DNA of 64,000 nucleotides from Gemmatimonadales bacterium (GCA_030697825.1 JAUYOW010000146.1:5978-69977), one strand, 5' to 3'; positions 14,815 through 64,000 are shown, counted from the first letter of the stretch. Made by a program: numbers and translations. The notes: generated from the letters alone by a model not told the origin.

Positions 14815-15338
14815 TGAACAAGACCGACAAGCAGAGCATAGTCACGGATCTGGGTGCCAAGCTGAAGGGCGCGCGCTCGATCTACGTGACGGATTTCCAG
14901 GGGCTCAACGTCGCGCGCGTGAGCGACCTGCGCCGCCGGCTGCGGAAGGCGGGGGTCGAGTATGTGGTGGTCAAGAACACCCTGGCCCGGCGCGCCTTGC
15001 TGGACGCCGCGGTGGGCGGGCTGGACGACCACCTGCACGGCGCCACAGCCCTCGCGCTGACCGCGCAGGACCCGGCGGCCGCGGCGAAGGTGCTGACCGA
15101 GTTCGCCAAGGAGTTCCAGAAGCCCTCGGTGAAGGCGGCGGTGATAGAAGGGCGGGCGGTCACGCCCGCGCAGGTGAAGCGGCTGGCGTCATTGCCGCCG
15201 CGGGAGCAGTTGCTGGCCGAGCTGGGCGCCGCGATGCAGGCCCCGCTGGCCGGGTTCGCGGGGGCGCTGTCGGCCCTCCTGTCGTCGTTTGCTGGCGCCC
15301 TCGAGGCGCTCAAGACGCAGCGCGAGGGCGCTGCCTGA
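14814..15338 (+). CDS. rplJ: 50S ribosomal protein L10
   Basis: uL10-like sequence (..[39 protein letters not shown]..). Confidence 0.95.
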
Positions 15339-15357
15339 TCTGGGAGAAGAGAGACCA

Positions 15358-15753
15358 ATGGCTACCAGCACCGCACTGAGCAAGGACGATATCCTCGAGG
15401 CGATCGGCAGCATGACGGTCGTCGATCTGGCAGACCTGATCGAGGCGTTCAAGACGAAGTTCAACGTGACGATCACCGTCGTTGCGCCGGCAGCCGCCGG
15501 TGGCGCGGGCGCGGGCGCGGCCGCACCCGCCGAAGAGGAACAGACGGAGTTCGCCGTCATCCTCAAGGAAACGGGCGCGAAGAAGATCCAGGTCATCAAG
15601 GTCGTCCGCGAGCTGACGAGCTTGGGCCTGAAGGAGGCGAAGGACCTCGTCGACGGCGCGCCGGCCACGGTCAAGGACGCCGTCAGCAAAGCCGAGGCGC
15701 AGGCGATGAAGGCGAAGCTCGAAGAGCAGGGCGCCACCGTCGAGCTGAAGTAG
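15358..15753 (+). CDS. rplL: 50S ribosomal protein L7/L12
   Basis: ATG at 15358 within track ORF 15289..15753. Ala/Gly hinge, and a C-terminal domain ..[28 protein letters not shown].. Confidence 0.97.
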
Positions 15754-15836
15754 CCGGGCGGTACGCCCAGGATCGCGGAACATGGTCGGTGTATGCCCCC
15801 CACCCGGGGCCTTTTGCGCTGCGCGAAGGATGAGCG

Positions 15837-20330
<4,494 letters not shown>

Positions 20331-20333
20331 CCG

Positions 20334-24608
<4,275 letters not shown>

Positions 24609-52406: not shown

Positions 52407-53690
52407 ATGTTCGGTGCGGGCACGCGCTGCCTCGTCGTGGTGGGGGCGCAGTGGGGCGACGAGGGCAAGGGCAAGGTCGTGGACGCGCTGGCCGAGCACG
52501 CCGATCTCGTGGTGCGCTATCAGGGAGGCGCCAACGCGGGGCACACGGTAGACGCGCCCGACGGCGAGTTCGTGCTGCACCAGATCCCCTCCGGCATCCT
52601 GCATCAGGCGACGAAGTGCGTGATCGGCAACGGGGTCGTCCTCGATCCCGAAACGCTGTTTCACGAGATCGACGCGCTCCGCGGGCGTGGCGTGACCGTC
52701 GAGGGCCGGTTGGTGGTCAGCGACCGCGCCCACCTGGTTCTCCCTTACCACAAGCTGCTCGACGCCGAGAGCGCGCGCAGCAAGAAGATCGGCACTACGG
52801 CCCGCGGCATCGGTCCGGCGTACGAGGATAAGTACGGGCGGCGCGGTGTCCGCGTCGGAGACCTGCGGCACCCCGAGATCGTGGCCAAGCTGGTGGAGGC
52901 CGGCGTCCAGCGCGCCAACGACCTGTTGGGGCTGGCGGGGTCGGTGAAGCGCTGCCACGCGGCGGAGATCGTCGCCATGCTGGCAGGTATGGCGCCCCGG
53001 CTGCTGCCGTTCGTGTCCGACGCGGGCAGGCTCGTGACGGACACCCTGAGGGATGGCGGCAACGTCCTGCTCGAGGGCGCGCAAGGCGCTCTCCTCGACG
53101 TGGACCACGGCACCTACCCGTTCGTGACCTCGTCGAGCACCACCGCCGGCGGCGCCGCGGTGGGCGCGGGCATCGGCCCCACGGCGATCGACGCCGTGCT
53201 CGGCGTCGTCAAGGCGTACACGACGCGCGTGGGCAACGGCCCGCTCCCGACCGAGGCGGAGGTGACCGAAGGCGAAAGGCTGCGCACGCTGGGCGGCGAG
53301 TACGGCGCGACTACCGGGCGCCCGCGCCGCTGCGGCTGGTTCGACGCGATGGTGGTGCGCTACTCGGTGCGCGTGAACGGCCTCACCGGGCTCGCGGTGA
53401 CCAAGCTCGACGTCCTCGATTCGTTCGAGCAGCTGTCCGTCTGCACGCACTACCGGCTCGGCGGCGAAACGCTGGACGACCTGCCTGACAACGTCGCGGC
53501 GCTCGCGGAAGTGGAACCGGTGTATGAGCTCCTTCCCGGCTGGCGCCAGCCGACCGGCGAGGCCCGCACGCTCGCCGCCCTTCCCCGGGAGGCCCGCGCC
53601 TACCTCGACCGCCTCGAGGCGCTGGCAGGCGCCCCCATCCGCTACGTGGGCGTGGGCACCAAGCGCGAGCAGCTGATCGAAGTGCAGTGA
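52407..53690 (+). CDS. purA: adenylosuccinate synthase
   Basis: ATG at 52407 after gaggagga. ..VVGAQWGDEGKGKVVD.. and ..GGANAGHTV.. Confidence 0.96.
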   Translation: MFGAGTRCLVVVGAQWGDEGKGKVVDALAEHADLVVRYQGGANAGHTVDAPDGEFVLHQIPSGILHQATKCVIGNGVVLDPETLFHEIDALRGRGVTVEGRLVVSDRAHLVLPYHKLLDAESARSKKIGTTARGIGPAYEDKYGRRGVRVGDLRHPEIVAKLVEAGVQRANDLLGLAGSVKRCHAAEIVAMLAGMAPRLLPFVSDAGRLVTDTLRDGGNVLLEGAQGALLDVDHGTYPFVTSSSTTAGGAAVGAGIGPTAIDAVLGVVKAYTTRVGNGPLPTEAEVTEGERLRTLGGEYGATTGRPRRCGWFDAMVVRYSVRVNGLTGLAVTKLDVLDSFEQLSVCTHYRLGGETLDDLPDNVAALAEVEPVYELLPGWRQPTGEARTLAALPREARAYLDRLEALAGAPIRYVGVGTKREQLIEVQ

Positions 53691-56212
53691 GGGTGCTCTT
53701 GAAGGTGCTGTCGGGAGTCGCCGCGGTCCTCGTCGTCGTGGCCGTGGTGGTCTCGTTGGTTCTCTTCCGCTCGATACCTCCCCTGGACGGCAAAGAGTCG
53801 TTGCCGGCGCTCTGCGCGCCGGTCGAGGTGCTCTGGGACAGCCTCGGCATCCCGCACCTCACGGCAGCGTCGGACGCGGACGCGCTGAAGGCGCTCGGAT
53901 ACCTCCACGCGCGCGATCGGCTGTGGCAGATGGAGACCCTCCGCCGCACCGCCGAGGGGCGGCTGGCCGAAGTGCTGGGACCCGCCGCCCTCGGCCTCGA
54001 CCGGTTCCTGCGCTCGCTCGACATCCCGCGCGCCGCGGCCGCGAGCCTGGGCACGATAGCGCCCGAGGCCCGGGCGCTCGCCGAAGCCTACGTGGCGGGC
54101 GTGAACCAGTGGATCTCCCACCACACGCGGCCACTTCCTCTCGAGTTCCAGCTCTTGCGCTTCGCCCCGGAGCCGTGGACGATGCAGCAGGTGGTCGAGG
54201 TGGCACGGGTGATGTCGTGGGACCTGGTGAGCGCGCGGCTCGAGCTGAACCTCGCGCGGGCGGCGGCGCGCCTGGGCCCGGAACGGGCGCGCGACCTGGT
54301 CCCGCTGTACCCGGACAGCGCGCCGGTCATCCTGGCGCCGGGGACTGCTACGTGGAAAGACGGGCGGCAGACGCGCAGACGCGCAGACGCGCAGTCGGTG
54401 GGCGGGCGGCAGTATTCGGTTGAACGGCAGTGGCTCCCGAGCCACCTGCTCGCCGAGCGGGAGGTCCCGGAGATACCGCCGTTGGCGGCGGAAGTTCTCG
54501 ACGCGGTGACCATGACGCGGGCGTCGAACTCCTGGGTGATCGGATCGTCGCGCTCGCGCTCGGGCAAGCCCATCCTGGCCAACGACCCGCACCTCCGGCT
54601 CAGCGCGCCTTCGCTGTGGTACCTCGCGGTCATCGAGAGCCCTCGCCTGCACGTCGCCGGCGCCACGATCCCCGGCCTGCCGGCCGTGATCATCGGGCAC
54701 AACCGGCGCATCGCCTGGGGGCTCACCAACGGGTCGGTGGACGACGTGGACTACGTGATCGAGCGGCTCTCGGCGGACTCCTCTCGCGTGCTCACGCCTG
54801 ACGGGTGGGCGCCGGTGGAGGTGGTCCGGGACTCGATCCGGGTTCGCGGTCGTCAGGCGGTCCCGTTCACGCTGCGGCGCACGGCGCACGGCCCGATCGT
54901 GGACGAGGCCGCGCCCGACTCGGGCTGGACCCACGCGCCGTCGGACAGCGCCGCGCCCGTGACCGTGCTCGCGATGCGCTGGAACGGGCAGGACCCGAGC
55001 GACGAGCTCACGGCGCTGATCGGCGTGGACCGCGCGGGTTCGTGGACCGACTTCCTCGCCGCCGTCTCCGGGTTCAAATCGCCCGAGCAGAACTGGATCT
55101 ACGCCGACGTGGACGGCAACATCGGGTACACCGCGAGCGGCGCGGTGCCGGTTCGGCGGTCGGGGGTCGGTCTCCTCCCGACACCGGGCTGGACCGACGA
55201 GGGGAGGTGGGAGCGGTACCTGGACTTCGACGAGCTGCCCCGCGCGTTCAATCCGCCCGATGGTTTCATCGTCACCGCGAACAACCGGGTGATAGGCCCC
55301 GAGTACCCGCACTTCCTGGCGCAGGACTGGGACCTCGGCTACCGGGCGGCACGAATCCGGGAGATGCTCGTACCGGGCGGTCCTTTCACCGCCCTGGACG
55401 TTGGACGCATGCAGCTGGACACGGTGGACGTCTTCGCGCGATGGGCCAGGCGCCTAGCCGCGGACGCCGCGGCGACCGCGGGCCGGCAGGACCTGGCTGA
55501 GCGGCTGCGCGCGTGGGACGGCACGATGGGATCCGACCGGACGGAGCCGACGCTCTTCTACGTCTGGTACCGGGATCTCCAGCGCCTTACGTACGAGGAC
55601 GAACTCGGTGGCTATGCGCCTTCGGGGCCACTGCACCGGTGGTTGCGCGCGGGCGGAAGCCCGTGGTTCGACGACATCAGGACGCCCGAACGCGAGGACC
55701 TGGCGGCGCTTTCCGCCCGCGCGATGCGCGAAGCGCTGCCGGTAGCCGAGGGTGTGAAATGGGGCGACGCGCACGTCACCGTGTCACAACACGCCCTCGG
55801 CGGCTTCGGGCCTCTCAACCGCCTGCTCGGCCTGAACCTCGGGCCGGCGCCGCGCGCCGGGTCGCTCTACACCGTGGATGTCGCCGACTTCGGTTCCTTC
55901 GCGCCGCCGTTCGTGAACACCCATGCGGCATCGTTCCGGCAGGTCGTGGATCTGGCGGACGTGGAGGCCGGGCGGATGATCGCGACCACGGGACAGTCGG
56001 GTAACCCGCTGGCGCGGCGATATCGCGACCAGAGCCGGCGGTGGTGGCGGGGGGAGTTGTGGGAGGTGCCGCTGGACCGCGAGCGGGTGGCGGCCGTCGG
56101 CACCCTGCATCTGACACCGCTGTCGCTATCCGCCCTATCCGCTCTATCCGTCTATGGTGTCACTCCCTCCGCGGCGCGCTCCACCAGCTGCGTCTCGACT
56201 AGCCGGCGGTAG
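53687..56212 (+). CDS. penicillin acylase family Ntn-hydrolase (possible acyl-homoserine-lactone/beta-lactam acylase)
   Basis: Signal/TM N-terminus, ..GYLHARDRLWQME.., and the nucleophile context ..TRASNSWVIG.. The last ~20 codons cross a 9-bp tandem repeat and overlap the convergent ABC gene, so the true C-terminus is uncertain. Confidence 0.85.
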   Translation: MRVLLKVLSGVAAVLVVVAVVVSLVLFRSIPPLDGKESLPALCAPVEVLWDSLGIPHLTAASDADALKALGYLHARDRLWQMETLRRTAEGRLAEVLGPAALGLDRFLRSLDIPRAAAASLGTIAPEARALAEAYVAGVNQWISHHTRPLPLEFQLLRFAPEPWTMQQVVEVARVMSWDLVSARLELNLARAAARLGPERARDLVPLYPDSAPVILAPGTATWKDGRQTRRRADAQSVGGRQYSVERQWLPSHLLAEREVPEIPPLAAEVLDAVTMTRASNSWVIGSSRSRSGKPILANDPHLRLSAPSLWYLAVIESPRLHVAGATIPGLPAVIIGHNRRIAWGLTNGSVDDVDYVIERLSADSSRVLTPDGWAPVEVVRDSIRVRGRQAVPFTLRRTAHGPIVDEAAPDSGWTHAPSDSAAPVTVLAMRWNGQDPSDELTALIGVDRAGSWTDFLAAVSGFKSPEQNWIYADVDGNIGYTASGAVPVRRSGVGLLPTPGWTDEGRWERYLDFDELPRAFNPPDGFIVTANNRVIGPEYPHFLAQDWDLGYRAARIREMLVPGGPFTALDVGRMQLDTVDVFARWARRLAADAAATAGRQDLAERLRAWDGTMGSDRTEPTLFYVWYRDLQRLTYEDELGGYAPSGPLHRWLRAGGSPWFDDIRTPEREDLAALSARAMREALPVAEGVKWGDAHVTVSQHALGGFGPLNRLLGLNLGPAPRAGSLYTVDVADFGSFAPPFVNTHAASFRQVVDLADVEAGRMIATTGQSGNPLARRYRDQSRRWWRGELWEVPLDRERVAAVGTLHLTPLSLSALSALSVYGVTPSAARSTSCVSTSRR
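56126..56157 (+). repeat. 3.5 copies of a 9-bp tandem repeat (CTATCCGNC)
   Basis: ctatcc occurs at 56126, 56135 and 56144, and ctatgg at 56152. The array sits at the junction of convergent genes, and the last unit contains the ABC-transporter stop codon. Confidence 0.7.
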
Positions 56213-57921
56213 ACCGCGCTGGTCTCGAGCAGTTCCGCATGCCGGCCGGCGGCCGCAATGCCGCCGCCGTCGAGCACGGCGATCCGGTCGGCCGCGAGCA
56301 CGGTGCTGAGCCGGTGGGCGATGATCAGGGTGATGCCGTCCGGGCGCCCGTAGCGCAAGCCTTCGGCGACCGACCGCTCGGTGGGGCTGTCGAGCGCGCT
56401 GGTCGCTTCGTCGAGAATGAGGATCTGAGGCCGCGTCACGATCGCCCGCGCCAGAGCGAGACGTTGCCTCTGGCCGGCCGAGAGCTTCCCGCCGCGCGGT
56501 CCGACGCGGGTGCGGTAGCCGTCGGGTAGGGAGTGAATGAGCTCGTCCAGTCGGGCCGTCTGCGCGGCCTTCGCGACCGCGGGCGACGGGAGGTCACGGC
56601 CCAGCGAGATGTTCCAGTCGACCGGCTCGTCGAAGACGAAGCAGTCCTCGAACACGACGCCCAGGTTCCGCGCGAGCGACGCCCGCGCCACGCGATCCAG
56701 CGGCACACCGTCTACCAGAATCCTGCCCGACTGCGGGGCCCGCAGGCGGACGAGCAGCTGCGCCAGCGTGCTCTTGCCCGACCCGCTGGCTCCCACCACC
56801 GCGACCACCTCACCGCGCCGGAGCTCGAGATCCAGGCCCCGGAGCACCGGCTCGCCCCCGGCATACCGGAACCCAACCTGCTCCACGCTGATCCGCTCCA
56901 CCGGTGAATCCACCGCTTCGGACCCGTCGCGCTCGCCCGACGCGCGATCGCCCAGGAAGGCGAAGACGTTGAGCGTCGCACCCTCCTGCTCGGCCAGCGC
57001 CGACGCCGCCTCGGTGATGGCGCCGAACTGACCCTGGAGGCGGCGCAGCACGAACCCGAGGGCGAGGACCAGCGGCAGATTCCCGAACAGTTGATCCTGC
57101 CAAACGTTGAGCGCCACCAGCAGCGCGCCCAGGAGCACCACCGCGTAGAGCACTTCGGTCGCGGGCTTCACCGCGCTGCGCCAGCGGTGCAGGCCCATCG
57201 CTTCGCGATAGAGCGTCTGGTTCGTGCGGCGGTGGAGCGCCAACCGCTCCCGGCCGACGTCGTAGGCCTGGATCACGTGGAGCCCAGCGGCATCGTCGAG
57301 CACCAGCCGGCTCGAGTCCTCTTCCGCACGCACCATGAGCACCGAGTAGGCTCGAATCCGGCGGCCCGCGTAGGCGATGACACCGAAGCCGATCGCTCCG
57401 AGGACCGCCGCGGCCAGGCTCAGCCGCCACGACAGCAGCACGAGGGCCCCGCCGTAGACCGCCAGCAGCAGCGCGGCGTTCAGCAGCGCCACGAGCGCGG
57501 AGACCCCGGCGACCACCCGCTCGGTCTGCATCGAGAACAGGTTCACGAGCCTCCCCCCGCCGAGGACGGCCAGGTCCGCGTAGCGGGAGGCGTAGAACGC
57601 CTCCGCCAGTGACTCCCGGAGACGAAGGAGCACGCGCAGCTGGAGCCGGGCCGAGAGGACGCCGTTCAGGTAGCAAGCCGCGGCGCGGAGCAGGACGAGC
57701 GCGCCGATCGCGAGGACGATGAGCTGGAGTCTCTGCTCCGATCCTCGCTCGAAGGACTCGAGGAAGGGAACGAGCAGCGTGACCGAGGCCCCTTCGAGCA
57801 GGACGAGCGCCAGCGAAGTGCCGGCGACCGTCGCCGCGGGCCGCTTGAAGCCCCGGAGCGAGGTGATCACCTCTCGAACGTCTTTCCACCGGGAAGCCAG
57901 ACGCTGCGGCAGTCTCATCAC
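56152..57921 (-). CDS. ABC transporter, fused permease/ATPase (lasso peptide exporter candidate, McjD-like role)
   Basis: Six-TM exporter domain. Walker A GASGSGKST, signature LSAGQRQRLALARA, Walker B ILILDEATSALD. The start overlaps the stop of the upstream kinase gene. Confidence 0.9.
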   Translation of the reverse strand: MMRLPQRLASRWKDVREVITSLRGFKRPAATVAGTSLALVLLEGASVTLLVPFLESFERGSEQRLQLIVLAIGALVLLRAAACYLNGVLSARLQLRVLLRLRESLAEAFYASRYADLAVLGGGRLVNLFSMQTERVVAGVSALVALLNAALLLAVYGGALVLLSWRLSLAAAVLGAIGFGVIAYAGRRIRAYSVLMVRAEEDSSRLVLDDAAGLHVIQAYDVGRERLALHRRTNQTLYREAMGLHRWRSAVKPATEVLYAVVLLGALLVALNVWQDQLFGNLPLVLALGFVLRRLQGQFGAITEAASALAEQEGATLNVFAFLGDRASGERDGSEAVDSPVERISVEQVGFRYAGGEPVLRGLDLELRRGEVVAVVGASGSGKSTLAQLLVRLRAPQSGRILVDGVPLDRVARASLARNLGVVFEDCFVFDEPVDWNISLGRDLPSPAVAKAAQTARLDELIHSLPDGYRTRVGPRGGKLSAGQRQRLALARAIVTRPQILILDEATSALDSPTERSVAEGLRYGRPDGITLIIAHRLSTVLAADRIAVLDGGGIAAAGRHAELLETSAVYRRLVETQLVERAAEGVTP

Positions 57922-58865
57922 GAAAGGTCGGCCAGCACGGCCTCGCAGACGGCGGGGAGCAGGGACAGGCTCCGAGGGTAGCTCAGGCGCTTGACCGGCA
58001 CCGCGGCCACCAGCCGGCTGGCGAACGCGAACTGGTTAGCGAGACGGTCCCGGTCCACCACGATCGTATTGAACGAATTCCGGATCACCTCGAGAAACGC
58101 GTCGCGGGCAGAGAGCCGTTCCAGCTCAATGCGCGCTGCCGGGCGGCGACCCGCGGGCGTCGGCTCGGAGAGGACGTAGAGCGCCCGGAGCGGCGCCCGG
58201 CGACGGGACAGCTGCCCGGCGGCGAGGGGGAAAATCTGCTTGGACGTGCCGTTGTTCAACGGTGTCCCGCCCCGCTCAACGCCCAGCACTCGTCGCGAGA
58301 CGCTCGGGAAGAGCTTGAGCCGGGGCATCCCCGGGTGGACCGCATAGCCCGAGGCCGTCGGCTCGAGCGCCATCAGATCGTCGGTGAGGATCGGGAACCC
58401 CAGGCGCAGGAACGCCGCTCCCAGGGTGGATTTCCCGTACCCGCAGTTCCCGAGAAACGCGATCGCCTCTCCGTCGATGACGACGACCGTCCCGTGCAGC
58501 GGCTCCACGCCGAATAGGAGCAGCGAGAACGACAGCACCTGGCCGAGGAGGTACGTGCTGAAGGATTCCGGGGTGGCTCGCTTAAGCTGATGGTACCTGA
58601 TGTCGCGGCCGTCCGCCGAGACCAGGAACTCGAACAGCCCGGTCCACCGCAGGTACGTCGAACCGGTGCGGAGACGGCGGCAGTAGAACCAGTCGCGGCT
58701 CGGCCGGTCGGTGGTTTCCCGCCGAGCAATTCCCTCGAAGCGGGCCGGTTCCCCGACCCGGAGCCTCACATCCGGTCGCCGCGCCCGCTGAACCCGAGGG
58801 CACGGGAGGACGAGAGGGCTCACGAGCGAGAGCCCGTAGAGCCGATAATGCGCTGTCGACCTCAA
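57918..58865 (-). CDS. HPr kinase-like serine kinase (lasso-peptide tailoring kinase candidate)
   Basis: P-loop FLGNCGYGKSTLGAAF followed by PILTDDL, as in the HprK/P C-terminal domain. The TTG start overlaps the precursor stop (TTGA). Confidence 0.75.
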   Translation of the reverse strand: MRSTAHYRLYGLSLVSPLVLPCPRVQRARRPDVRLRVGEPARFEGIARRETTDRPSRDWFYCRRLRTGSTYLRWTGLFEFLVSADGRDIRYHQLKRATPESFSTYLLGQVLSFSLLLFGVEPLHGTVVVIDGEAIAFLGNCGYGKSTLGAAFLRLGFPILTDDLMALEPTASGYAVHPGMPRLKLFPSVSRRVLGVERGGTPLNNGTSKQIFPLAAGQLSRRRAPLRALYVLSEPTPAGRRPAARIELERLSARDAFLEVIRNSFNTIVVDRDRLANQFAFASRLVAAVPVKRLSYPRSLSLLPAVCEAVLADLS

Positions 58866-59038
58866 GCGTTAGTGCCGCTGGCCTTGGTCTTCGGCTTCCC
58901 ACCACCACCGTCGGCCGCGCTGCCGCCCTTAACTCTTGTCAGCGCGCTGATGTCGCCATGCACGGTAAGTTCCGGTGAACGATACGGCTTCTTTTTCCCG
59001 GTGCTCCGCTGGGACTGGCCTTTCTTCCCCTTGTTCAT
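58862..59038 (-). CDS. lasso peptide precursor (58 aa), not in the ORF track
   Basis: Codon-by-codon hand translation gives MNKGKKGQSQRSTGKKKPYRSPELTVHGDISALTRVKGGSAADGGGGKPKTKASGTNA. Residues 19-35 match the lasso leader motif YxxPxLx3Gx5Tx. ATGA overlap with the cyclase stop and TTGA overlap with the kinase start. Confidence 0.8.
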   Translation of the reverse strand: MNKGKKGQSQRSTGKKKPYRSPELTVHGDISALTRVKGGSAADGGGGKPKTKASGTNA

Positions 59039-60993
59039 ACAGTGCTCTCCGAGAGAGGGGTTGGGGGCCGGGCCGGAATTGCGCGCTCCCCGCCCAAGAA
59101 TACCTCAAGCCACACTTCCAAGGCAAACAGATCGGTGAGATCCCAGGTGCCGAGGCAGTCCGGACCCTCGAGCTCCGCGGCGAGGCCGGGAAGCGCGGCC
59201 GCCAGCCGACGCTCGTCAAGGTACCCCAGGCGAGCCGCCAACGAGCCTTGCGACAGCCGAGCGCAGACCTGCCCCAGGTCCCGGCCAATCCCACTGTTCG
59301 CGGCGGCCGTGAAGTCTGCCTTCCACGTTCGAGCGCGCAGCGGCTCGGGGAGGATGCCCCCCATCGCTTCCCGCAGCAGCGCCCGGGGAACGCCGTCCCG
59401 GTTCTGGATTTCTCCCGGCGCAGCCATGAGGAACGCGATGAGGTCACGATCCAGGAACGGGAAGGCCGCGTCCAGCCCGTGCAGCGCGGCGATCTTGTTG
59501 TTCCACTCCATGCAGTGCACGTGATACTTGGACCGGGCTTCCAGATACAGCGATCTCGCGTGGACGGAGTGGAAGCCGTCTCCGAACCACACGGGGCGGT
59601 TTGCGAACCTGAGCGCCCGGCGGCGGAAGGAATCCGAGAACCACGGCCTGGGTCGCTCCGGGCGGGAGATCATTCGGCGCAGCCACTTGAACAGCGGGGC
59701 CGCCGCACGCGGGACATAGTGCCGGGCGACATCGAGCACGAGCCGCCGCCTGAGCACCAGCGTCTCTTCCGGCCCGAAGAACCGCTGGTAGGTCCGGGTG
59801 TGTCGCTGGATCTGTCCGAAATCCAGCCGCCGGAAGAGATCCGCCAGATACGCGGCCGAAAACAGCATCTGGTCGCCCCAGTGCCCCGAGAGCAGCACCC
59901 GCGCGCCGGCCTCTCGGGCCCGAACATGTACTTCGCGGGTCACTCCCCAGAAGTAGTCCATAAAGGGCGCCTCGATGGCCCGCACCTGGTCCTCGGCGCC
60001 CCGGACCACACCGAGCAGAGGCTCGATGGGAATTCGCCCGACCGATACGCCGTACGCCTGCTCGATCTCACGCAGAAAACGCTGCTCGTCGGCCGCGGTG
60101 CCCTCGGCGCCCACGTAGGATATCCCGATCACGCCGGGAGCCGCGGCCCGTCCAGCGCGCCGAAGGGTTTCCGCCTGGCAGAAGATGGAGGATGAATCCA
60201 GGCCCCCGCTCACCGAAACGGCCACCGGGTGAACGGCACGCGTCCGACGCCGCACCGCTTCCGCGAACCGCTCGCGGAATGCTTCGGCGTATTCGCCGAA
60301 CGAGTTCAGGCGGAGCGTGCGGCCCCGGTCGAAATCCCAGTACCGCCGGGCCATCAACCGTTCGGGCGTCACTACGACGAGATGCGCCGGCACGACCGCG
60401 GAGATGCCCGTGAAGCAGGTGATGTCCTGGCGATCGACCGGCCGCGAAGCCAGGAGCAGGTAGTCGGCGAGGCCCTCGTCGTCGGGACGCGCCGGTATCT
60501 CCGGGTGCGCCAGCAACGCCTTGATTTCGGAGGCGAACGCACCCAGCCGGTCGCTGCGGAAGTAGTAGAGGGGGCGAACTCCGATCGGGTCGCGCACCAG
60601 TAGCAGGCGTCGCTGTCGCTCGTCGAAGACCGCCAGCGCGAAATCGCCGTTCAAGCGTCCGGGGAACCGCTCCCCCCAAGCCTCGTACGCCGCGAGCACG
60701 CACGCGGCGTCGCTGACCGTCGGGGGCAGTCGCAGCGCGCCAAGCAGCTCGTCGCGATTGTCGAGCCGGCCGTCCATGACCAGCATGGCGCCGCTGCGAC
60801 CCACGGGCGGCTGGACCTCGCCGGTCTCCTCGGGGGTCACCCACAGGTGCTGCCACGCGAAGCCAGCCGGGCCGGCCACCCGCCGGCCCTCGCCGTCGGG
60901 CCCGCGGTGGCGGAGCGCGGCACTCATGCGGGCCAGCAGCGCATCCTCCGCCGGCCGCGCATCGAGGTTGAACACTCCGACGATTCCGCTCAT
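59035..60993 (-). CDS. asparagine synthetase-like lasso peptide cyclase (C protein)
   Basis: The N-terminus is MSGIVG, with Ser replacing the glutaminase Cys of AsnB. PP-loop SVSGGLDSSS. 652 aa. Cluster context. Confidence 0.85.
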   Translation of the reverse strand: MSGIVGVFNLDARPAEDALLARMSAALRHRGPDGEGRRVAGPAGFAWQHLWVTPEETGEVQPPVGRSGAMLVMDGRLDNRDELLGALRLPPTVSDAACVLAAYEAWGERFPGRLNGDFALAVFDERQRRLLLVRDPIGVRPLYYFRSDRLGAFASEIKALLAHPEIPARPDDEGLADYLLLASRPVDRQDITCFTGISAVVPAHLVVVTPERLMARRYWDFDRGRTLRLNSFGEYAEAFRERFAEAVRRRTRAVHPVAVSVSGGLDSSSIFCQAETLRRAGRAAAPGVIGISYVGAEGTAADEQRFLREIEQAYGVSVGRIPIEPLLGVVRGAEDQVRAIEAPFMDYFWGVTREVHVRAREAGARVLLSGHWGDQMLFSAAYLADLFRRLDFGQIQRHTRTYQRFFGPEETLVLRRRLVLDVARHYVPRAAAPLFKWLRRMISRPERPRPWFSDSFRRRALRFANRPVWFGDGFHSVHARSLYLEARSKYHVHCMEWNNKIAALHGLDAAFPFLDRDLIAFLMAAPGEIQNRDGVPRALLREAMGGILPEPLRARTWKADFTAAANSGIGRDLGQVCARLSQGSLAARLGYLDERRLAAALPGLAAELEGPDCLGTWDLTDLFALEVWLEVFLGGERAIPARPPTPLSESTV

Positions 60994-61009
60994 AGATTAC
61001 ATTATAACA
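60994..61009 (-). promoter_or_regulatory. extended -10 promoter (TGTTATAAT) placed to give a leaderless cyclase mRNA; AT-rich divergent control region
   Basis: The minus strand reads tgt-TATAAT-gtaatct-ATG, so the -10 box ends 7 nt before the ATG at 60993. The surrounding 60994-61014 is conspicuously AT-rich in a GC-rich genome. A TATAAC on the + strand (61003-61008) faces the PqqD-like gene. Confidence 0.4.
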
Positions 61010-61039
61010 GATACTCCGACGCGCGAGCCAAGAGCCTCT

Positions 61040-61351
61040 ATGACTGCCCGCAACATTCCGGACTCGGCCACCGTCGTCGCGGCCGGGGACCTGCTCGCCA
61101 GCGAATTCGGCGCCGAGCTGGTGATCCTCAACCTGCGGGACGGCGTGTACTACGGGATGGAGGACGTCGGCGCGCGCGTCTGGAGCCTCTTGCAACGACC
61201 CGTCACGGTCTCCGCCATCCGCGAGACGCTGGTCGCGGAATACGACGTCGAGCCGGCCCGCTGCGGGCGGGACGTGCGGGCACTGCTCCAGGATCTGGCC
61301 GCGCGCGCCCTGATCGAGGTCCGGGAGAGCGGTGATGGCGCTGTGGCGTAA
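61040..61351 (+). CDS. PqqD-family RiPP recognition element (lasso B1 protein)
   Basis: ATG at 61040 inside track ORF 60758..61351. ..GAELVILNLRDGVYYGMEDVGARVWSLLQRPVTVSAIRETLVAEYDV.. is the typical PqqD pattern. Confidence 0.85.
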   Translation: MTARNIPDSATVVAAGDLLASEFGAELVILNLRDGVYYGMEDVGARVWSLLQRPVTVSAIRETLVAEYDVEPARCGRDVRALLQDLAARALIEVRESGDGAVA

Positions 61352-61799
61352 GCTTCGCACCCTGAGCGCCGCCGACCGCCGCCTCCTCGCGGAAGCGGGG
61401 CTGCTGCTCGTGCTCACCCGGATCGGGCTCTGGCTCCTTCCCTACCCGAAGCTCCGGCGAGTGCTGGACCGGGCCCACCCTTCGGGGCGGGAACCGCCCC
61501 GCGAGTTCCCCAATCGCGTCTCCTGGGCGGTCACCGCCGTCGCGCGCAGGCTTCCGGGAATGACCTGCCTGGTTCAGAGTCTCACCGCACACGCCCTGCT
61601 GCACCGCCGGGGATATCGCGCCGATCTGCGCATCGGCGTCCATGAGCGCGCCAGCCACGCCGCGAGACCCCTCGAGGCCCATGCCTGGGTCGAGTGTGAG
61701 GGCCGCGTCGTGGTGGGGAAGGTCCAGAACCTGGCCGACTACACGGTTCTGACCCCGACCGCGCCGCCAGCTTCTCCCGCCACGCCAGACCCCTCATGA
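61335..61799 (+). CDS. transglutaminase-like lasso leader peptidase (B2 protein)
   Basis: Catalytic Cys context PGMTCLVQSLTAHALL and His context LEAHAWVECEG. It overlaps the B1 3' end (GTG 61332 is an alternative start). Confidence 0.85.
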   Translation: MALWRKLRTLSAADRRLLAEAGLLLVLTRIGLWLLPYPKLRRVLDRAHPSGREPPREFPNRVSWAVTAVARRLPGMTCLVQSLTAHALLHRRGYRADLRIGVHERASHAARPLEAHAWVECEGRVVVGKVQNLADYTVLTPTAPPASPATPDPS

Positions 61800-62935
61800 C
61801 CGCGGTGCTGCCCGCACACCTGGCCGACGGTCTCGCGGCGGTGCTCCGCGGCGAACGGGTCTCCTGGCGCTCGCTCGGCGTGGAACCGGCCGATCTGCTC
61901 GCGGTCTGTGCCGAGGAAGATCTCACCGGCCTGGTGCATCATCAGCTGGGCAACCTACCGGAAATCGGCTGGCCGCAGAGCCTCCGCGACAGCCTGACGC
62001 GCGAAGCCCGAGCGGGAGCGACGCGGGAGCTCCTCCGTCGCAGAGAACTGGTCACGGTGCTCGACGCCCTCGCGGCGCGAGATATCCACCCGATCCTGCT
62101 GAAGGGCACGCCGCTCGCGTACACGGTCTACGAGGCCCCGAGCCTCCGGCCCCGCAGCGACACCGACCTTCTGATATCGCGGGAGCAGACCGATACCGTC
62201 CGCCGCGTCATGACTGGGATCGGCTACTCGGCCACGAACTACTGCGACGGCGAGTTCCTGTTTTGCCAGTTTGAGCTTGGAAAAGAGGACGCGTTCGGCG
62301 TCGGTCACGCCTTCGATTTCCACTGGAAGATCAGCACCCAGTCCGCCTTCGCCGATCTCCTCAGCTATGACGAGCTCTCAGGTGACGCGACGCCCGTCCC
62401 CGCGCTCGGCGCCCACGCGCGCACCGCCGGAGCCGTCCACGCGCTGCTCCTGGCCTGCGTTCATCCGGTGATGCACCACCGAAACGTCGAGCGGCTCGTC
62501 TGGATCTACGACATCCACCTGCTCGCTGCACGGCTCTCGCGCGCCGAGTTCGACCGCCTCGCGGAGCTGGCAGTGCGCAAGGGCGTCGCCGCGATCTGTG
62601 CGCACCAGTTGGCGCTCGCCCGCTCGCGGCTCGGCACCCCCGTGCCCGACGAGGTGATCGCCGCCCTTGCCGCGCCCGGGCGTGAGGCCGAGCGATCGGC
62701 TTCCTACCTGGAGCCTGAGCGGCGGTGGAACGACGAGCTCCTGTCGAATGTCCGGGGATTGCCCCGCTGGACCGATCGCCTCCGCCTGTTGAAGGAAGTC
62801 GCGTTTCCCGCGCCAGGCTACATGCTCCGGGCCTACGGGTTGGACGGAGCCGCCTTCGGAAGCGCCCTGCTCCCCGCCCTCTACGTCCACCGCGGCGTGC
62901 GGGGCATCTGGAAAGTGTTGCGCAACCGCAAATAG
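61796..62935 (+). CDS. uncharacterised nucleotidyltransferase family protein (NTP_transf_5-like)
   Basis: ..PILLKGTPLAYTVYEAPSLRPRSDTDLLISREQTDTVRRVMTGIGY.. matches my memory of this family. ATGA overlap with B2. Confidence 0.7.
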   Translation: MTAVLPAHLADGLAAVLRGERVSWRSLGVEPADLLAVCAEEDLTGLVHHQLGNLPEIGWPQSLRDSLTREARAGATRELLRRRELVTVLDALAARDIHPILLKGTPLAYTVYEAPSLRPRSDTDLLISREQTDTVRRVMTGIGYSATNYCDGEFLFCQFELGKEDAFGVGHAFDFHWKISTQSAFADLLSYDELSGDATPVPALGAHARTAGAVHALLLACVHPVMHHRNVERLVWIYDIHLLAARLSRAEFDRLAELAVRKGVAAICAHQLALARSRLGTPVPDEVIAALAAPGREAERSASYLEPERRWNDELLSNVRGLPRWTDRLRLLKEVAFPAPGYMLRAYGLDGAAFGSALLPALYVHRGVRGIWKVLRNRK

Positions 62936-63109
62936 CCCTGCCCGGCGAGCCCGCTCGCCGACCCGGTCGATTGCCGCCGCGACCGTGACAAAACCCGCTA
63001 TTCCCGGTCATAGAGGCGATGGGCATGCGATCGTGTCTTTCGGGCTGATCCTCGGCGAACGTCCTTGGCCCGAATAGTTGGAACGGCACCAGTGGAGAAA
63101 CTCCGAATC

Positions 63110-63132
63110 GGCGCCGGTTCAGCGCCGGCGCC
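63110..63132. terminator. GC hairpin downstream of the BY-kinase gene
   Basis: 8-bp stem ggcgccgg / ccggcgcc with a 7-nt loop, 8 nt beyond the stop at 63140-63142. Confidence 0.35.
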
Positions 63133-63139
63133 CGCCGTG

Positions 63140-64000
63140 CTAGAAGAGGTGGGCGATCCGCTCGCGGAGGGCCGACAGCGGCCCGCGGCCCGTGGGCTGG
63201 TCCTTGCGGTAGTAGTAGTTGTAGTACTGGTCGCGCGTCTGCTGCACGCCGTTCAAGACCGAGCCGGCGACGCGGGCCTGGACGCGGCGCAACTGGCCGA
63301 GCGCGCGCTGGGCGGCGACCTCCTCCGTCTCGCCGGAGCGCAGGACCAGGATGACGGCGTCGGCCGAGGCGCCGAGCACGGCCGCGTCGGTCACGGCGAG
63401 CGTGGGCGGCAAGTCGAAGATCACCGTGTCATACTGGGTGCGCAGTTGCTCCAGGAGGCGGTGCATCGCCGCCGAGCCGAGCAGCTCCGACGGGTTCGGC
63501 GGCAGCGTGCCGGCCGGCAGGATATCGAGCTTCGGGATCACGTTGGGCCTGATGGCCTCGCGCAGCTGCGCGTTGCCGACCAGCACGTCCGTGAGCCCCG
63601 GCTCCTGCACCAGGTTGAAGGCGCGGTGAATCTGGGGACGGCGCAGGTCCGCGTCCACCAGGAGCGTCGTGGTGCCTTGCTGCGCGAGCGTGACCGCCAG
63701 GTTCGCCGCGGTCGTGCTCTTTCCCTCGCCCGGTCCCGGGCTGGTGGCACAGATGAGCTGTAGCGCCCGCTGTTCGGCATTCACGAAGGTGACGTTGGTG
63801 CGGAGCGCCCGGTAAGCCTCGCTGGACGGATCGTCGGGGCTGGCCAGCGACACCAGGTGGATCGCGCCTCGGCGTCGACCGTCCTTGCGGAGGCCACCGG
63901 CCGAGCGTGTCTCGAGCGGGATCAGGCCGAGGACCGGTATCTCCAGCGCGCGCTCGACGTCCGCCGCGGTCTTGATCGTCTGGTCCAGGTACTCGAGGAA
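63140..64000 (-). CDS. polysaccharide-biosynthesis tyrosine autokinase (BY-kinase / Wzc C-terminal domain), partial; N-terminal part lies beyond the right window edge
   Basis: Walker A SPGPGEGKST, Walker A' LLVDADLRRP, Walker B VIFDLPP, C-terminal Tyr cluster DQYYNYYYRKD. The frame stays open upstream of the track's GTG (63853) to position 64000 (..FLEYLDQTIKTAADVERALEIPVLGLIP..). Confidence 0.9.
   Translation of the reverse strand, partial: FLEYLDQTIKTAADVERALEIPVLGLIPLETRSAGGLRKDGRRRGAIHLVSLASPDDPSSEAYRALRTNVTFVNAEQRALQLICATSPGPGEGKSTTAANLAVTLAQQGTTTLLVDADLRRPQIHRAFNLVQEPGLTDVLVGNAQLREAIRPNVIPKLDILPAGTLPPNPSELLGSAAMHRLLEQLRTQYDTVIFDLPPTLAVTDAAVLGASADAVILVLRSGETEEVAAQRALGQLRRVQARVAGSVLNGVQQTRDQYYNYYYRKDQPTGRGPLSALRERIAHLF

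Follow-up and report, generated by a model that had tools for sequence, protein, structure and literature searches.

A 64,000-nucleotide stretch of DNA from a Gemmatimonadales bacterium (GCA_030697825.1 JAUYOW010000146.1:5978-69977), hereafter the window, contains at positions 58862..59038 of the minus strand a short gene that encodes a genuine lasso-peptide precursor of class II type. On balance, we favour the reading that this precursor belongs to a large, uncharacterised family of kinase-linked lasso peptides, that it is phosphorylated at T51 in the tail of its core peptide and that the modified Thr acts as a steric lock. The new result is that a tail hydroxyl is conserved in this family within a P-x-[T/S]-[K/R] motif, providing a testable acceptor shared by a large and unstudied group of peptides. 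An initial annotation, made from the sequence of the window, had placed the core-encoding interval at 58862..58933 and had described a core that begins at V36, closes on D43, ends in Ala, lacks F, Y, W, H and R, and offers S40, T51, S54 and T56 as candidate acceptors. Translation of the open reading frame (ORF) bears out each of these details. The same annotation also judged the core to be atypical, a judgement not supported by the family survey, as all three of the listed departures are the family consensus and each has a published precedent.

The precursor gene

The precursor ORF runs from ATG to TGA over 58 codons and has the translation MNKGKKGQSQRSTGKKKPYRSPELTVHGDISALTRVKGGSAADGGGGKPKTKASGTNA. 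The interval 58862..58933 extends from the V36 codon (GTT, 58931-58933) to the stop codon inclusive, and the encoded core peptide, VKGGSAADGGGGKPKTKASGTNA, has 23 residues (V36-A58), with D43 as its sole acidic residue. The precursor scores 20.3 bits over residues 19-39 with the NCBIfam model lasso_leader_L3 (NF033521), for which the curated cut-off is 19. With a second model, lasso_cyano (NF033528), the score is 29.1 bits, under the cut-off of 33, in an alignment that reaches only core residue 5, and the model covers neither the core nor the tail motif. A search of 5.8 billion proteins returned 14 homologues with E values from 4e-25 to 2e-6. Comparison of 25 codons with the corresponding gene in the nearest reference-genome locus (L005), from a Gemmatimonadales metagenome-assembled genome (MAG), identified 5 identical codons, 12 with synonymous and 8 with nonsynonymous changes, consistent with purifying selection, and many synonymous changes across conserved residues are also seen when the precursor is compared with its other homologous loci. 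The gene overlaps both of its neighbours, its start with the stop codon of the lasso cyclase gene (ATGA) and its stop with the listed start of the kinase gene (TTGA). No second precursor came to light in the window when its six reading frames were scanned for the motif. The GC content of the third codon positions (GC3) of the precursor gene is 0.71, below the 0.83-0.89 of its neighbours, and several of its codons (TAT, CGT, TCA, CTT, AGA, GTT, GGT and ACT) are rare for the GC-rich context.

Size and norms of the family

A profile built from 15 sequences, the 14 homologues and the window precursor, was searched against representatives of protein clusters at 50% identity, and 1499 representatives matched at E<=1e-3, 37 of them at E<=1e-10. 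Family statistics were compiled from the best 150 of the 1499 representatives plus the 14 homologues and the window peptide. The leader motif is present in 156 of the analysed precursors, of which 148 also have an Asp or Glu at core position 7-9. For the tail, a ring-anchored alignment was made of 170 cores, those of the 156 motif-bearing precursors and 14 more from the fetched loci.

Position 1 of the core is Ala in 64, Gly in 24, Val in 17, Thr in 10 and Ser in 10 of the analysed relatives, with Lys, Asn, Arg, Ile, Met and Asp as rarer residues and Pro, Gln and Glu as single cases. Val1, listed by the initial annotation as a departure, is found in several independent members, for example in L022-L024, which have the core VKGGTRNDGAGKPRTRLSGGNA. 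According to a 2026 study, small residues predominate at position 1 of lasso peptides, although a large-scale analysis has recorded every residue but Pro there; the study also characterised lasso peptides with Phe1 or Glu1, the products of a highly tolerant cyclase (PMC13632552). The plug-free tail is also common, with Phe, Trp, Tyr and His all missing past core position 8 in 122 of 156 relatives and Arg missing as well from 50 of 148 tails. The C-terminal residue, counted in 148 relatives, is Ala in 51, Gly in 23, Thr in 17, Ser in 14 and Val in 12. The claim that HprK-like lasso kinases act on a C-terminal Ser holds for PadeK, ThcoK, SyanK and PsmK but is out of date as a general statement, because the acceptor of BsfK, from Bradymonas sediminis, is core Ser3, and its precursor has a C-terminal Asp (PMC10368454). 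As these counts document for position 1, the C-terminus and aromatic content, the window peptide is a typical member, and Val1, a plug-free tail and a non-Ser C-terminus are, in the sequences surveyed, norms of the large family to which it belongs. The consensus for the core reads [A/G/V/T/S]-K-G-G-x-x-x-D-G-x-G-K-P-x-T-[K/R]-(x2 or x7).

Members of the core family are also present in MAGs assigned to Methylomirabilota and Nitrospirae (L006 and L007). A literature search for descriptions of this precursor family, of Gemmatimonadota lasso peptides, and of Val1 or Thr-phosphorylated lasso peptides found nothing beyond antiSMASH-type counts and the known kinase papers; in the literature searched, the family is an uncharacterised variant of the known kinase- and nucleotidyltransferase-tailored lasso peptides. 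The Acidobacteriaceae precursors in the supplement of PMC10368454 were considered and set aside as a different family, since they are missing the AKGG and PKTK motifs. A few representatives have unusual architectures. P0060, of 382 amino acids, contains a tandem array of five repeats that resemble lasso leaders (KKPYxxPxLxDHG...T) and ends in an unrelated domain, and P0103, P0107 and P0154 each have two leader-core units fused in one ORF.

Leader, core and ring

Alignment of the window precursor with the 14 homologues predicts a leader peptide, M1-R35 (58934..59038, minus strand), with a basic N-terminal extension and the sequence MNKGKKGQSQRSTGKKKPYRSPELTVHGDISALTR, and a core peptide, V36-A58 (58865..58933, minus strand). 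Residues M1, K17, P18, Y19, R20, P22, L24, V26, G28, L33, T34 and D43 are invariant in this alignment. They include the YxxPxL motif, Y19-L24 (58967..58984), predicted to be recognised by B1, the RRE protein, and Thr34 (58937..58939), the predicted recognition residue of the leader peptidase. Relative to V36, Y19 is at -17, P22 at -14, L24 at -12 and T34 at -2, and a YxxPxL motif at -17 to -12 together with Thr at -2 is the published rule that defines lasso cores (PMC10368454). Thr is present at -2 in 147 of 156 representatives, and an Asp or Glu acceptor is present at core position 7-9 in 148 of 156, at position 8 in 127, at position 7 in 11 and at position 9 in 10. Lys occupies core position 2 in 113 of 148 relatives, and Gly occupies position 4 in 115 of the 142 cores aligned on the tail anchor described below. 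Given the leader spacing, Thr(-2), the acidic residue at position 8 and the Lys2 and Gly4 counts, cleavage before V36 and an eight-residue macrolactam ring from V36 to D43 (58910..58933), both proposed in the initial annotation, are well supported predictions. Cleavage before G38 or G39, which that annotation had raised as an alternative, was considered and rejected, as the ring would then have 6 or 5 residues and the rings in all known lasso structures have 7-9 (PMC12214591).

Three distant members (L030:6013-6135, L031:4289-4411 and L037:2713-2832) have a 5-6 residue insertion, for example LVVPPA, between the leader LT and the xKxGxxxD ring. This puts a Pro, or a Thr with other spacing, at -2 of the conserved ring and implies a different leader/core junction in these precursors.

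The conserved tail motif

The tail of the window core contains the motif P49 K50 T51 K52 (58883..58894, minus strand), in which T51 is the proposed phospho-acceptor. The strict P-x-[T/S]-[K/R] motif is present in 132 of 148 relatives, and the few members that depart from it nonetheless read PKT[F/Y/W/C/L]. The hydroxyl residue that anchors the motif is kept in 142 of the 170 aligned cores, as Thr in 124 and as Ser in 18, and among these 142 the residue at -2 is Pro in 119, the residue at +1 is Lys or Arg in 133, and the spacer from Asp8 to the motif is four residues in 98. In the window, owing to an extra Gly in the loop, the anchor is core Thr16. The length of the tail beyond the anchor is bimodal, with two residues in 26 members (for example ...TKL, ...TKA and ...TKT) and seven in 75, including the window peptide.

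The other candidate acceptors that the initial annotation had listed beside T51 are poorly conserved. The ring position equivalent to S40, core position 5, is Ser or Thr in 40% of members, and among long-tail members Ser or Thr occupies the position of S54 (anchor+3) in 64% and that of T56 (anchor+5) in 17%. In short-tail members the S54 and T56 positions do not exist and the kinase is still kept. The anchor is the only core hydroxyl in nine members. In the three of these anchor-only members for which contigs were fetched (L048, L049 and L050) a kinase homologue that is 42-52% identical to the window kinase, with the H...GxxGxGKS...DD pattern intact, is encoded directly downstream, and L035, with the core VKGGIRGEPKKNSRL, has the same combination of an anchor-only hydroxyl and the kinase pattern. 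If the leader is not the target of the kinase, the acceptor in such members would be the anchor Thr and, by homology, that in the window would be T51. As the sole conserved hydroxyl of the four, with anchor-only members beside an intact kinase, T51 is the best candidate phospho-acceptor.

The HprK-like kinase and the NTP_transf_5 protein

The kinase gene (K; 57918..58865, minus strand; 315 amino acids) lies immediately downstream of the precursor gene. Its product gives weak matches to HprK_rel_A and Hpr_kinase_C, and its assignment as an HprK-like peptide kinase comes from its similarity to BsfK (28% identity over 188 amino acids, E 9e-15), its catalytic motif and a model of its fold. All eight residues that matter in BsfK by mutagenesis (PMC10368454) are present in the window kinase as H124, G139, G142, G144, K145, S146, D162 and D163. 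Across 30 kinase homologues seven of these are invariant and G142 is nearly so. The AlphaFold model of the kinase, computed from the alignment of these homologues, is confident (pLDDT 91.1, pTM 0.90) and most closely matches ATP-dependent phosphoenolpyruvate carboxykinases (E ~1e-8, template-modelling (TM) scores of 0.5-0.6 on the query), followed by HprK/P (E 3e-6, TM 0.5-0.6 on the target). HprK/P and the phosphoenolpyruvate carboxykinases have the P-loop fold in common. A sequence search of the PDB with the kinase returned only an insignificant match to HprK/P (E 0.23), and the same search with the NTP_transf_5 protein returned no match.

Of the 47 fetched loci, 41 encode a kinase homologue, which lies beside the precursor wherever the sequence continues beyond it; the other six are distant relatives or contigs that are short or end close to the precursor gene. 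Those homologues that have names come from MAGs of Gemmatimonadales or Gemmatimonadetes, where they are annotated as "hypothetical protein". The closest homologues, which are 91-97% identical, are called at 279-283 amino acids, 90% of the window ORF, and translation of the kinase may therefore begin later than the TTG at 58865 that overlaps the stop codon of the precursor gene.

The NTP_transf_5 protein (N; 61796..62935, plus strand; 379 amino acids; Pfam PF14907, E 6.8e-38) is encoded in 17 of the fetched loci, mostly those with longer flanks. Residues G104, D121-x-D123 and D174-x-H176 are conserved in 16 of 16 true homologues; three apparent homologues proved to be antisense ORFs over the cyclase gene and were excluded from the alignment. 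From their conserved residues, both tailoring enzymes, K and N, look active.

Proposed maturation and alternatives

In the maturation pathway that we propose, B1 would bind the YxxPxL motif of the leader and the HprK-like kinase would phosphorylate the linear precursor, most probably at T51 (core Thr16). Action on a linear precursor has been demonstrated for PadeK, ThcoK and BsfK, with BsfK stimulated by B1. N would then probably extend the phosphate, by analogy with the PsmN-dependent addition of hexose to pseudomycoidin, B2 would cut after R35, the cyclase would link the amino group of V36 with the side chain of D43, closing the eight-residue ring around the tail, and the ABC transporter would export the product. 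The tail of the window peptide lacks F, W, Y, H and R but contains K48, K50 and K52 and, as there is no aromatic residue, the likeliest steric lock would be the modified Thr together with the Lys residues on either side of it. The empirical minimum for a lasso tail is two residues (PMC12214591), and as the short tails of the family end precisely two residues past the anchor, the ring probably sits on the T-[K/R] pair or immediately ahead of it. A lock formed by modification had been offered as a speculation in the initial annotation. The idea was already published for pseudomycoidin, where the proposed lock is a phosphate with one or two hexoses and hexose addition requires PsmN (PMC6993621); the phosphate part of the suggestion agrees with that proposal, whereas the adduct in pseudomycoidin is a hexose and not the nucleotide that had been envisaged.

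Several points weigh against T51 as the acceptor and lock. The assignment follows from conservation, and the motif could instead serve in target binding, export or folding. Thr(-2) of the leader is as invariant as the anchor and, by conservation alone, could also be the kinase site. The window kinase shares only 28% identity with BsfK, and in the characterised lasso kinases the acceptor is a C-terminal Ser or ring Ser3, not a tail Thr. Direct activity of PsmN has never been shown in vitro, and threading of the product is a prediction.

Modification by the kinase might occur elsewhere in the core, at ring S40, at distal S54 or T56, or at several sites. The acceptor of BsfK is a ring Ser, lasso kinases are capable of polyphosphorylation and the S54 position is often a hydroxyl in long-tail members, but the low conservation at S40 and T56, the retention of the kinase with short tails and the nine anchor-only members make this unlikely, although it deserves serious attention. 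The product might also not be a stable threaded lasso but branched-cyclic or easily unthreaded, with a Gly/Lys-rich tail that has no effective lock despite its modifications. Unmodified pseudomycoidin, the tail of which also has no bulky residue, was isolated unthreaded (PMC6993621) and the window core has no F, W, Y, H or R. However, conservation of the P-x-T-[K/R] motif is strong and its distance from the ring is fixed, the fact that K and N have been kept suggests that the modification is functional, and in solved lassos 17 of 20 residue types are found at the upper plug position and 14 of 20 at the lower, with Lys among the bulky candidates (PMC12214591), and we therefore consider an unlocked product rather improbable.

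The remaining alternatives are weaker. Cleavage might generate a different register, with a seven-residue K37-D43 ring or a nine-residue R35-D43 ring. Rings of both sizes are predicted in relatives, as noted above, one of which has a K1-D7 core, but the fixed spacing of YxxPxL and Thr(-2) points to V36 and the x1-K2-x-G4 register is conserved, leaving this only a slim prospect. Thr phosphorylation could be a leaving-group step that precedes elimination to dehydrobutyrine and not a final decoration. Lanthipeptides acquire their dehydro-amino acids in this way, by phosphorylation and then elimination, and a title cited in a 2026 review refers to a dehydroalanine-containing lasso peptide from a hybrid biosynthetic system. 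However, neither the cluster of the window nor those of the relatives include a lyase-like gene, and the conserved partner of the kinase is N, so that elimination appears very improbable, slightly more so than a shifted register. That the precursor ORF is a chance reading frame, as its shortness and its GC3 below that of its neighbours might suggest, can be dismissed for practical purposes given the homologues across phyla, the synonymous substitutions, the score above the cut-off of the hidden Markov model and the fixed position of the gene between the cyclase and kinase genes. The reading in which T51 is phosphorylated and serves as the lock thus remains the one we prefer.

In its broadest form this reading would describe a widespread lasso lineage that has swapped aromatic plugs for an enzyme-installed lock, a phospho-Thr (possibly glyco- or nucleotidyl-Thr) located at the ring within P-x-T-[K/R] and written by a tail-Thr-specific HprK-like kinase with an NTP_transf_5 enzyme, in at least ~150 clusters at 50% identity, possibly >1000, in Gemmatimonadota, Methylomirabilota and Nitrospirota. 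We offer this generalisation tentatively and regard it as possible but doubtful.

Organization of the cluster and neighbouring genes

The lasso cluster at 56152-62935 is complete, with the precursor gene (A) accompanied by genes for C, K, D, B1, B2 and N. The C, A, K and D genes follow one another on the minus strand, with overlaps between C and A, A and K, and K and D (K and D share 4 nucleotides), and B1, B2 and N are transcribed divergently on the plus strand. C (59035..60993, minus strand; 652 amino acids) is the lasso cyclase, with matches to Pfam Asn_synthase (5.8e-39) and NCBIfam lass_lactam_cya (1.9e-105). D (56152..57921, minus strand; 589 amino acids) is an ABC exporter with Pfam ABC_membrane and ABC_tran domains, and its gene also adjoins that of the kinase in L001, L002, L012 and L014. 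B1 (61040..61351, plus strand) is the PqqD-like RRE protein, with matches to Pfam PqqD (8.4e-18) and NCBIfam lasso_PqqD_Bac (3.5e-18); it has ~104 amino acids if translation begins, as is probable, at ATG 61040, and its homologues have 98-103. B2 (61332..61799, plus strand; 155 amino acids) is the transglutaminase-like leader peptidase, recognised by NCBIfam lasso_biosyn_B2 (105.5 bits, cut-off 33) and by Pfam Transglut_core3. The arrangement of cyclase, B1 and B2 genes around the precursor is repeated in L001, L002, L004, L012, L014 and L016. A promoter and terminator scan of 56000-63200 returned matches no more frequently than in shuffled sequence.

Two metagenome contigs, L001 and L002, are syntenic with the window, with genes in the order adenylosuccinate synthase, penicillin amidase, D, K, A, C, B1, B2, N and tyrosine kinase. 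The regions syntenic with 56152-62935 (L001:5597-11406 and L002:5597-11406) have two cyclase genes and four tandem precursors; the window has one of each. One of these precursors, located after the second cyclase gene, has the core KGGKRNDGGGRPKTRVGTG with a seven-residue Lys1-Asp7 ring. In the window, the penicillin-amidase (Ntn-hydrolase) gene (53687-56212, plus strand) converges on the exporter gene (56152-57921, minus strand), with a 61-nucleotide overlap at the exporter 3′-end. As this gene is adjacent in L001 and L002 but missing in L004, it is probably outside the cluster. L004 (6517-13568) has, past its cluster, a methyltransferase gene, a second NTP_transf_5 gene and several glycosyltransferase genes, which may be relevant to what gets added to the phosphate. 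Elsewhere in the window, two consecutive ORFs of 1497 and 1424 amino acids at 15837-24608 (plus strand) are probably rpoB and rpoC, and a 2506-amino acid antisense ORF at 15189-22709 is presumably an artefact of the GC-rich sequence.

Comparison with known lasso-peptide systems

Kinase- and nucleotidyltransferase-tailored lasso peptides have so far been represented by a handful of examples from Firmicutes and Proteobacteria, and a role for the phosphate modification, as a lock, has only been proposed by the authors of the pseudomycoidin study. The family described here offers a concrete acceptor, one Thr in a fixed motif that is the sole core hydroxyl in some members, and a natural series of variants that differ in position 1, in ring size (7 or 8 residues) and in whether the tail is short or long. 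Should the Thr prove to be the modification site, the regiospecificity of lasso kinases would extend from a C-terminal Ser and ring Ser3 to a tail Thr, the family would be a clean system in which to test a post-translational modification as a steric lock, and cyclases that naturally tolerate variation at position 1 would be useful in engineering.

Like the window, the paeninodin and ThcoA/SyanA systems, with the kinases PadeK, ThcoK and SyanK, encode a split B1/B2, a cyclase, an ABC exporter and an HprK-like kinase, and these kinases and the window kinase have the His/P-loop/Asp-Asp catalytic motif in common. The paeninodin-type acceptor is, however, a strictly conserved C-terminal Ser, whereas the window peptide ends in Ala and few of its relatives end in Ser (14 of 148), and the paeninodin type is found in Firmicutes and Proteobacteria whereas the window is probably from a Gemmatimonadota. 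Pseudomycoidin, from Bacillus pseudomycoides, resembles the window peptide in having both a kinase (PsmK) and an uncharacterised NTP-transferase-family protein (PsmN), and a tail with no bulky plug. It differs in having an Ala1-Asp9 ring and a C-terminal Ser acceptor, where the predicted ring of the window peptide is Val1-Asp8 and its conserved Thr motif is internal. N, with its PF14907 match and conserved DxD, may be PsmN-like.

BsfA, the substrate of BsfK, shares with the window precursor the lack of a terminal Ser, a ring from residue 1 to Asp8 and an accompanying N gene, but has Ile(-2), Gly1 and an acceptor, Ser3, inside the ring, whereas the window precursor has Thr(-2), Val1, Gly3 and its conserved hydroxyl in the tail. 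The features that define the BsfA type, Ile or Val at -2 and Ser or Thr at core position 3, are accordingly missing from the window precursor, and Ser or Thr is present at core position 3 in 6% of its relatives. Acceptance of a residue at position 1 that is not small is also a property of the palassoptides, with Phe1 or Glu1, and of tolerant cyclases of the FusC type. Those gene-cluster families are unrelated to that of the window, in which the tolerance is seen as natural variation inside one family.

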